Shown here: positions 40,230-40,400 of the stretch, piece after piece
How the letters are laid out: every line of letters begins with the position of its first letter
How positions within the stretch are numbered: the first letter of the stretch is position 1
Origin: Escherichia coli
GTDB taxonomy: Bacteria > Pseudomonadota > Gammaproteobacteria > Enterobacterales > Enterobacteriaceae
Length of the DNA stretch: 64,000 nt
NCBI RefSeq assembly: GCF_003018235.1
Contig: NZ_CP027437.1
Direction: 5' to 3' (one strand)
The notes under the pieces: model-generated
The model's database searches: none
Told to the model about the DNA's origin: nothing
The model's input: only the letters and a program-made list of their open reading frames with translations
Position numbers and translations under genes: made by a program

Positions 40230-40400
40230 TCAGGCTACAGCTTTAAGATTTGTCTGGAATACTTTGTTGCAATGAGGGCAGATCAAAAGGGCACCTTTTT
40301 GTACTCTTGAAAAACTGTGTTCTGACTCTTGGGTGCAGTTTGGGCAGGAACATTTAACGAGATAATTACGGCGTGATTTTGAGTCTTTACGTTCTGACAT
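40230..40400 (-). CDS. Small zinc-ribbon protein (hypothetical)
   Basis: 56 aa MSERKDSKSRRNYLVKCSCPNCTQESEHSFSRVQKGALLICPHCNKVFQTNLKAVA; CxxC-N18-CxxC; RBS AGGAAAAG. Confidence 0.45.
   Translation of the reverse strand: MSERKDSKSRRNYLVKCSCPNCTQESEHSFSRVQKGALLICPHCNKVFQTNLKAVA

Follow-up and report, generated by a model that had tools for sequence, protein, structure and literature searches.

The prophage gene ynfU encodes a predicted zinc-ribbon small protein and travels with cold-shock genes, not lysis genes

Introduction

The small-protein gene ynfU of Escherichia coli K-12 was discovered by ribosome profiling of stalled initiation complexes (Ribo-RET) and confirmed by chromosomal SPA tagging, and SPA-tagged YnfU was present at the highest level among the newly found small proteins (Weaver et al. 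2019, bioRxiv 10.1101/511675). The same authors remarked on 'a pair of zinc knuckles' and on a moderate modelling match to the zinc domain of PA0128, reported that YnfU is expressed in uninduced K-12 and is abundant at 37°C, and expected small proteins mostly to bind larger ones (Weaver et al., bioRxiv 10.1101/511675). The gene was detected independently by PIRT-seq (PMC12350097). Later literature repeats the zinc-motif remark or lists ynfU as uncharacterised, and the literature mentioning the gene reports no function for it.

Several genes that lie near ynfU belong to what we refer to here as a cold-shock island. One island member, YnfR, is cold-shock induced (PMC6001520), and a table of induced genes groups cspI and ynfN with a gene that is named there as ynfQ and said to be induced by cold shock (PMC11228462). 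The literature and databases therefore already cover the existence and translation of ynfU, its zinc-knuckle motif and the family to which it belongs; what we consider modestly new is that ynfU has a conserved link to the cold-shock island and a conserved promoter-like element upstream. Together with the purifying selection described below, both give a foothold for work on YnfU, an orphan that ranks among the better-expressed small proteins of E. coli K-12.

Results

Identification of ynfU

The window analysed here is a stretch of 64,000 nucleotides of E. coli DNA (contig NZ_CP027437.1), and its features of interest are listed in Table 1. An open reading frame on the minus strand, beginning with an ATG at 40400 and ending with a stop codon at 40230 (171 nt; 56 codons plus stop), has the 56-residue product MSERKDSKSRRNYLVKCSCPNCTQESEHSFSRVQKGALLICPHCNKVFQTNLKAVA. 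Sequence comparison identifies it, almost beyond doubt, as ynfU (b4776) of the Qin prophage of E. coli, on which the curated YnfU family was founded. The ynfU region, taken as a 331-nt query, matches 1649 of 5426 complete E. coli genomes and is at least 99% identical in 1512 records, in which the underlying feature is 'ynfU: putative zinc-binding protein YnfU'. Against Pfam PF23499 'YnfU' (cut-off 27) the protein scores 107.7 bits, with residues 1-49 aligned to profile positions 1-49 of 49, and against NCBIfam NF038384 'YnfU family zinc-binding protein' (cut-off 36) it scores 79.8 bits, with residues 1-51 on positions 1-51 of 52; the curated cut-offs are thus passed and the full profile covered. 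Like the rest of the family (approximately 52-60 aa) it is a single domain that has the SEHS(F) motif and a pair of CPxC knuckles separated by 18 residues, and it is orthologous to K-12 ynfU, with 99.7% identity to MG1655-derived records annotated ynfU and the same neighbours.

Table 1. Features of the ynfU locus and its surroundings in the window
Feature	Coordinates	Strand	Evidence or remark
cspF	39138..39350	-	Pfam CSD 77.8 bits; divergent from cspB, third of the ynfU-cspB-cspF trio
cspB	39651..39866	+	Pfam CSD 108.1 bits; convergent with ynfU, most constant neighbour
GC-rich hairpin with A-run/T-run flanks (bidirectional terminator)	40148..40167	both	63 nt beyond the ynfU stop
ynfU CDS (C4 zinc-ribbon small protein)	40230..40400	-	ORF; RefSeq 'putative zinc-binding protein YnfU'; PF23499; NF038384; dN/dS; published Ribo-RET, SPA-tag and PIRT-seq
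Shine-Dalgarno AGGA	40408..40411	-	7 nt before ATG; cAGGA kept at this position across loci
-10-like hexamer TACTGT (family consensus TAtgGT)	40428..40433	-	conserved upstream alignment
-35-region block GAGAAAT (family RRGCWAT)	40450..40456	-	G-33 in 68/71, A-30 in 54/71; poor TTGACA match
Alternative sigma-70-like TTGAAA-18-AATAAT (10/12)	40459..40488	-	promoter scan; E. coli allele only
Lysis cassette essQ, ydfR, rrrQ, rzpQ	40620..42175	+	neighbour of ynfU, not part of its unit
essQ holin (P21-type)	40620-40835	+	PF04971 Phage_holin_2_1 'P21 holin S', 116.7 bits
cspI	42536-42748	+	annotation transferred from 99.8% identical record
ymcF-like	42759-42947	+	PF23641 109.9 bits; transferred annotation
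ynfR	42950-43015	+	transferred annotation, 99.8% identical record
ynfN	43020-43250	+	transferred annotation, 99.8% identical record
gnsB	43422-43595	+	transferred annotation, 99.8% identical record

The earlier note, made from the letters of the window, had described a 56-aa ORF with the pattern CxxC-N18-CxxC, a basic N-terminus and a plausible ribosome-binding site, on the strand opposite to the lysis genes and divergent from the holin gene. All of this agrees with our reading: the knuckles are C19PNC22 and C41PHC44, with 18 residues between C22 and C41; six of the first 16 residues are Arg or Lys (R4, K5, K8, R10, R11 and K16); the AGGA of Table 1 is suitably placed; and 219 bp separate the start codons of ynfU and holin. 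The note could assign no family, for which PF23499, NF038384 and the RefSeq annotation now provide the answer. Between the knuckles lies the motif S26-E-H-S-F30, an extra cysteine is present at position 17, and 12 residues follow the second knuckle. In total the protein has ten K/R and four D/E residues, and reading of its sequence revealed no hydrophobic or membrane segment.

A mechanical ORF list also contains a 73-aa version of the ORF that begins with an ATG at 40451. Conservation across species and the RefSeq annotation support the 56-aa start as the better candidate, and a further argument in its favour is that the predicted ynfU promoter and transcription start (see below) fall within the hypothetical 73-aa extension.

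The gene order quuQ(ydfT) - cspF(-) - cspB(+) - ynfU(-) - essQ - ydfR - rrrQ - rzpQ - cspI in an MG1655-derived record is also that of a 12-kb match in another strain which is 99.8% identical to the window. Compared with Qin of K-12, the window prophage has terminase genes downstream and approximately 1.7 kb of additional DNA between quuQ (36270-37022), its Q gene, and cspF. The shared order, the terminase genes and the additional DNA show that the window contains a fuller relative of the cryptic Qin prophage.

Conservation and selection

One genome per species was scanned, giving 62 ynfU loci. The ORF is intact and begins at M1 of the 56-aa form in approximately 60 Enterobacteriaceae species, the exceptions among the 62 loci being one with a changed start and two that are cut by contig ends. 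Pairwise comparison of 66 distinct coding sequences gave a median dN/dS of 0.11, with variability of 0.18, 0.08 and 0.40 at the three codon positions. We conclude that ynfU is a real, translated and selected protein gene. The earlier note had raised the possibility that the gene is a leftover, against which both this strong purifying selection and the high expression in K-12 argue.

Within the Enterobacteriaceae set the invariant residues are C19, P20, C22, S26-E-H-S29, R32, K35, G36, L39, C41, P42 and C44, and when relatives at 26-42% identity are added those that stay invariant are C19, P20, C22, L39, C41 and C44. Neither C17 nor the basic tail is conserved in these relatives. The note would have given up its reading had the cysteine positions not been conserved in homologues, but C19, C22, C41 and C44 vary in no full-length homologue; because C17 varies, these four presumably form the zinc site. 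Zinc binding by YnfU is thus predicted from four invariant cysteines in a zinc-ribbon model.

Database searches recovered the YnfU family from Enterobacteriaceae-type records only, and a profile search of 1.84 billion representative proteins returned just 46 clusters at E ≤ 1e-3, among which there were no informative domain fusions. Long proteins with multiple hits in the profile search look like unrelated zinc-finger arrays, as judged from the table of hits alone. None of the PADLOC-DB models matched YnfU at E values up to 1, so that it does not belong to a listed anti-phage defence family, and no convincing family was found in PHROGs, the best match being phrog_12343, of unknown function (E 0.0026). 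The YmcF-like protein is a second small Cys-rich protein of the island (CPCC ... CIFC); as a candidate homologue of YnfU it was discarded, the hhalign probability being approximately 1%.

Predicted fold

AlphaFold2 modelling of YnfU gave a pLDDT of 59.5 with a first alignment and 75.5 with a more diverse one, rising to 81-86 for residues 11-50. In the model, the two CPxC knuckles are enclosed by four short strands (14-18, 25-29, 38-40 and 47-49) and a single short helix (30-35). The modelled core is a C4 zinc ribbon with two CPxC knuckles, the invariant SEHS(F) strand and a KG turn, and in the Enterobacteriaceae it is preceded by a basic tail.

A Foldseek search of the PDB with the first, poor model (pLDDT 59.5) returned nothing below an E value of 0.4. 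Searching the PDB with the YnfU sequence profile gave Tim15 (E 0.0064), L44e (E 0.017) and PA0128 (E 0.027) as its matches. Two Pfam families scored below their cut-offs and were rejected: the PhnA/YjdM zinc ribbon (PF08274), with 22.4 bits against 30.8, and the DNL zinc finger of Tim15/Hep1 (PF05180), with 13.4 bits against 27. The hallmark of the DNL family is the segment H-L-I-A-D-N-L after the second CxxC. In YnfU the stretch after C44 is variable (NKVFQTNL, STLFKSSQ and others) and the conserved DNL is absent. Because this motif is missing and the marginal PDB scores are all similar, we read YnfU as a generic zinc ribbon and not as a homologue of any of these proteins.

Promoter-like element, leader and terminator

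Alignment of 71 distinct upstream sequences, drawn from 25 genomic contexts, shows the block TAnnGT 32-36 nt before the ynfU ATG (33-36 nt in all but one) in 71 of 71, a result in which T-12, A-11 and T-7 were imposed by a filter that every sequence passes. Other columns are also well conserved, with G-13 and G-8 in 69 of the 71 sequences, T-14 in 62, and CC at the predicted +1 in 64-68. The same block precedes relatives of approximately 40% identity in unrelated contexts (loci L080 and L082). From the sequence of this element we place the transcription start tentatively at about 40421/40420, which would give a 5' UTR of approximately 20 nt. The block in the -35 region could be a weak -35 or a site for a regulator, and since it is a poor TTGACA match the promoter may be assisted by another factor. 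Sigma-70-like matches in the region are as numerous as expected from shuffled sequence, and the alternative TTGAAA-18-AATAAT match, which is not kept in other genera, was demoted in favour of the conserved block. Compared by eye with the consensus sequences of LexA, Zur, marbox, CRP and alternative-sigma sites, the block misfits each of them in spacing or sequence. For the pinholin promoter that the earlier note placed between ynfU and the holin gene, the plus strand of the intergenic region offers only a weak 9/12 sigma-70-like match at 40467-40494.

A perfect 7-8-7 inverted repeat, CTGTATA-N8-TATACAG (40410-40431, minus strand), overlies the predicted -10 and +1 of ynfU. It occurs only in the E. 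coli/phage allele (the window and loci L004 and L015) and is absent in other genera. Its half-sites resemble the LexA CTGT/ACAG, with the wrong spacing of 14 instead of 8.

A conserved hairpin in the 5' leader is unsupported, the fold of 40395-40427 having a z-score of -0.3, and Rfam identified no cspA-type thermosensor in the ynfU leader. Downstream of the gene, the window hairpin AAACCCGC-loop-GCGGGTTT is flanked by an A-run and a T-run; read on the plus strand it has an 8-bp stem with five GC pairs followed by a T-run, and its fold z-scores are -3.3 (plus strand) and -2.7 (minus strand). It is a strong intrinsic terminator on the plus strand, at the end of the cspB-side transcript, and probably terminates ynfU on the minus strand too. 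The same hairpin, AAAACCCGC..GCGGGTTTT with loops that vary, is found 60-130 nt past ynfU in Escherichia, Citrobacter, Klebsiella and Raoultella loci.

The late genes of lambdoid phages are normally read from pR' beside Q. With a promoter-like element, leader, Shine-Dalgarno sequence and terminator of its own, ynfU could be expressed from an uninduced prophage independently of Q-dependent late transcription. The moron suggested in the earlier note fits this anatomy, a self-contained opposite-strand unit inside the late region: the promoter-like element is indicated by conservation, a terminator is present, the gene sits between quuQ and essQ on the opposite strand, and its protein is made in uninduced K-12. 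We infer that ynfU behaves as a moron and is expressed while the prophage is repressed, and that it is an autonomous transcription unit and a member of the cold-shock island is, in our judgement, very probable.

Cold-shock and lysis neighbours

Genes for cold-shock proteins were sought by tblastn of 5-kb flanks with CspB and CspF of the window as queries. Of the 62 species loci, 45 have a csp gene no more than 500 bp from ynfU (31 of them no more than 300 bp away), and none was found in the 5-kb flanks of the remaining 17. Clustering of the loci by their outer flanks yields 25 distinct genomic contexts, 20 of which have a csp neighbour. The commonest layout, ynfU> <cspB cspF>, is that of Qin and is found in 17/62 species loci and 72/80 viral loci; in some species loci the csp gene is on the other side of ynfU or points the same way. 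About 25 of the 62 have homologues of ynfN and/or ymcF directly upstream of ynfU and on the other strand; with these included, at least one cold-shock-island gene (csp, ynfN or ymcF) adjoins ynfU in 50. One Citrobacter locus (L017) has the order <gnsB <ynfN <ymcF <cspI | ynfU> <cspB cspF>, which is the Qin island without the lysis cassette. The conserved chromosomal copy of the Enterobacter cloacae complex (GST-tautomerase-YnfU-HTH_20-EF-G) lacks a csp neighbour, as do distant YnfU relatives. In phage PHB10 the gene is close to int/umuDC, with csp genes as neighbours and lysis genes far away.

Of the 62 species loci, only four have ynfU adjoining lysis genes, and one more has a holin fragment there. 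The control of lysis or holin that the earlier note had implied fares poorly against these counts, given the 45 loci with a csp gene within 500 bp. Nor does ynfU qualify as a lysis component, since its co-occurrence with lysis genes is inconsistent and its product has no hydrophobic stretch. Predicted viral contigs contain 171 ynfU matches, and in the 80 examined the layout is <lysis genes | ynfU> <cspB, with a lysis gene directly upstream of ynfU in 75 and a cspB-like gene within 500 bp in all 80. Phages HannyBb, Tritos and 2H10 carry ynfU, and the one neighbourhood that was read, that of HannyBb, has this lysis/ynfU/cspB layout. In a Klebsiella phage with 57% YnfU identity, ynfU is divergent from a different holin. 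Taken over all loci, ynfU co-travels with cold-shock genes and not with lysis genes, and we infer that the island is host-fitness cargo which Qin-type phages carry around the lysis cassette.

Other features of the region

In the window the lysis cassette essQ-ydfR-rrrQ-rzpQ is situated inside the cold-shock island (39138-43595), and in L017 (3500-5600) the island is contiguous and free of lysis genes; either a prophage has decayed there, keeping only its morons, or the island predates its capture by phages. Within the cassette, rrrQ encodes an endolysin with a hydrophobic N-terminal stretch, and ydfR (40840-41151, plus strand; DUF1327, 179.9 bits) lies between holin and endolysin, an unusual spot for an extra gene, and this arrangement was seen in 57 of the 80 viral loci. 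Three Lelliottia loci (L011-L013, 4507-5680) have a YnaE-family gene (PF27475, Rac/Qin cold-shock-associated) directly upstream of ynfU and a csp gene downstream, between liv transporter genes and pgsA-uvrC, and represent another small cold-shock islet at a chromosomal site.

The cspB gene has an Rfam cspA thermoregulator (39490-39913, 158.9 bits). Its stop codon is followed by approximately 300 nt (39867-40175, plus strand) that look structured and extend to the strong terminator; this segment, which is unannotated in RefSeq, may represent an sRNA, a leader-like element or a long 3' UTR of cspB. Such a long spacer between cspB and terminator is found only in Escherichia and Citrobacter loci, other genera having about 120 nt. 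Within it, an 11-codon ORF (MKQWPAYLAKS, ATG at 39979, plus strand) has a perfect AAGGAG 9 nt upstream. Chance probably accounts for a weak Rfam match to Trp_leader (40084-40173, 23.8 bits against 41, E 0.2), and otherwise Rfam reports in this region only the cspA thermoregulators of cspB and cspI.

The extra DNA of approximately 1.7 kb relative to K-12 Qin, within the interval 37023-39137, holds a 61-aa ORF (38183-38368, minus strand) that is annotated as hypothetical, has no Pfam match and is also present in phage HannyBb with 100% identity. The deposited annotation of HannyBb (L004) lists about 20 tandem 'hypothetical proteins' of 30-45 aa between Q and cspF (4580-7350), which looks like an over-annotated non-coding or repetitive stretch. 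ARAGORN detected no tRNA genes in the Q-to-ynfU interval of either the window or HannyBb.

Discussion

The explanation of ynfU that we favour, with some reserve, is that it is an autonomous moron-type unit of a mobile cold-shock island and encodes an accessory of host physiology. The gene would form a unit of its own, sharing a bidirectional terminator with the convergent cspB, in a mobile island, cspF-cspB-ynfU ... cspI-ymcF-ynfR-ynfN-gnsB, which would bracket the lysis cassette in Qin-type lambdoid prophages and persist in other Enterobacteriaceae without any lysis genes. YnfU would be expressed constitutively, its zinc ribbon and basic tail may bind RNA, the ribosome or a host protein, and selection would maintain it as a host-physiology accessory and not as a regulator of the adjacent holin. 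Its companions, the csp genes and the cold-shock small-protein genes ymcF, ynfR and ynfN, point to work at low temperature and on RNA or the ribosome, not to lysis timing, and make CspB, CspF, YmcF and YnfN candidate partners.

Several observations weigh against parts of this explanation. The linkage to csp genes could reflect hitch-hiking on one mobile island or be a by-product of the shared terminator, and 17 of the 62 species loci, the Enterobacter cloacae complex copy included, have no csp neighbour, as is true of the distant relatives. The basic tail is missing from the latter, which weakens a nucleic-acid-binding argument for the family as a whole, and the invariant acidic/His motif SEHS is atypical of a purely electrostatic RNA binder. 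We suggest only tentatively that YnfU has a part in stress physiology through binding to RNA, the ribosome or a partner protein; the small DNA/RNA-binding regulator considered in the earlier note is possible. More speculative still is the idea that it is a working component of the cold-shock island, acting on RNA or the ribosome, or with atypical Csp paralogues of the CspF/CspH type, YmcF or YnfN, and that prophages carry the entire island as a host-fitness module around their lysis genes. A short leader of approximately 20 nt lacking a cspA-type thermosensor, together with abundance at 37°C, suggests that ynfU is probably not cold-induced in the manner of cspB and cspI.

The strongest competing explanation is that YnfU is a passenger, selfish or neutral cargo that stays beside csp genes through block movement and the terminator shared with cspB, which has no functional link with cold shock or Csp proteins, and whose partner is an unrelated host protein. 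Other small zinc ribbons, YacG and Hep1/Tim15, bind gyrase or Hsp70, and YnfU could work similarly. Such a reading accommodates the stand-alone chromosomal copies without a csp neighbour in Enterobacter and in distant relatives, the terminator hairpin common to both genes, and the fact that the best PDB sequence match is the zinc finger of Tim15, an Hsp70 co-chaperone; it also accords with the expectation that most small proteins bind larger ones (Weaver et al., bioRxiv 10.1101/511675). However, the Tim15 match is no better than those to the unrelated zinc ribbons L44e and PA0128, and the DNL motif is absent. Moreover, 50 of 62 loci keep csp, ynfN or ymcF beside ynfU despite many rearrangements, in at least 20 flank contexts; this exceeds what simple co-inheritance would give, with phylogenetic non-independence controlled only in part. 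We therefore regard the passenger explanation as possible but on balance doubtful.

A role of YnfU in regulating the adjacent lysis cassette or late transcription, whether by binding DNA in the 219-bp divergent region to repress or activate transcription or by setting the time of lysis, is suggested by the arrangement of the genes. Qin, five sequenced E. coli phages and the Klebsiella phage, with its different holin, all have ynfU divergent from a holin gene, a lysis gene is directly upstream in nearly all viral loci examined (75/80), and in the E. coli allele the inverted repeat CTGTATA-N8-TATACAG is located in the shared control region. We nevertheless consider this role very improbable, as purifying selection on ynfU persists in the large majority of species loci, which lack lysis neighbours, the PHB10 copy is remote from lysis genes, YnfU is expressed in uninduced K-12, and other genera lack the inverted repeat, which is confined to the E. 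coli allele. An antiholin it cannot be, since it lacks a membrane segment. It is similarly far-fetched that the locus acts at the DNA or RNA level, with convergent ynfU transcription and the terminator insulating the lethal lysis genes from read-through of strongly cold-induced cspB and the protein being secondary. In its favour, cspB points at the holin gene, the sole strong plus-strand terminator between them lies just before the 3' end of ynfU, and convergence with cspB is the commonest architecture. Against it, the dN/dS of 0.11 and invariant cysteines show selection on the protein itself, convergence is also kept where lysis genes are absent, and some loci have the csp gene on the other side or co-oriented.

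Comparison with known systems places YnfU, as predicted, among small zinc ribbons of several kinds. The N-terminal ribbon of PhnA/YjdM (PA0128, PDB 2akl), likewise of the C4 type and about as large, ranks second among the Pfam matches and near the top of the PDB-sequence and Foldseek ones. Members of that family usually bear a PhnA C-terminal domain, whereas YnfU is free-standing and has none, and PA0128 is without SEHSF. The DNL-type finger Tim15/Zim17/Hep1 is an escort protein of mitochondrial Hsp70, and the local pattern CxxC-x3-S-x-H-x2-S-[KR]...KG-x-x-L-[IV]-CPxC aligns with Tim15. Among small ribbons that are free-standing or ribosome-associated, LysW, the ZitP zinc finger, the archaeal HVO_2753, eL43/L37Ae, eS27 and the 'putative zinc finger' of the Methanosarcina acetivorans 70S structure 9o17 have a generic likeness of fold without a sequence relationship to YnfU.

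At the level of gene organization the closest parallels are the lambdoid morons, of which bor and lom of lambda and the Qin csp genes are examples; ynfU, too, is self-contained cargo of the late region and is expressed without induction, moron being an anatomical category and not a protein family. The closest system of all is YnfU of K-12 itself, which is the same gene: the 331-nt region is 99.7-100% identical, the length, start and CPxC knuckles are alike, and the synteny cspF-cspB-ynfU-essQ-ydfR-rrrQ-rzpQ is that of the window, so that nothing substantive differs in ynfU itself.
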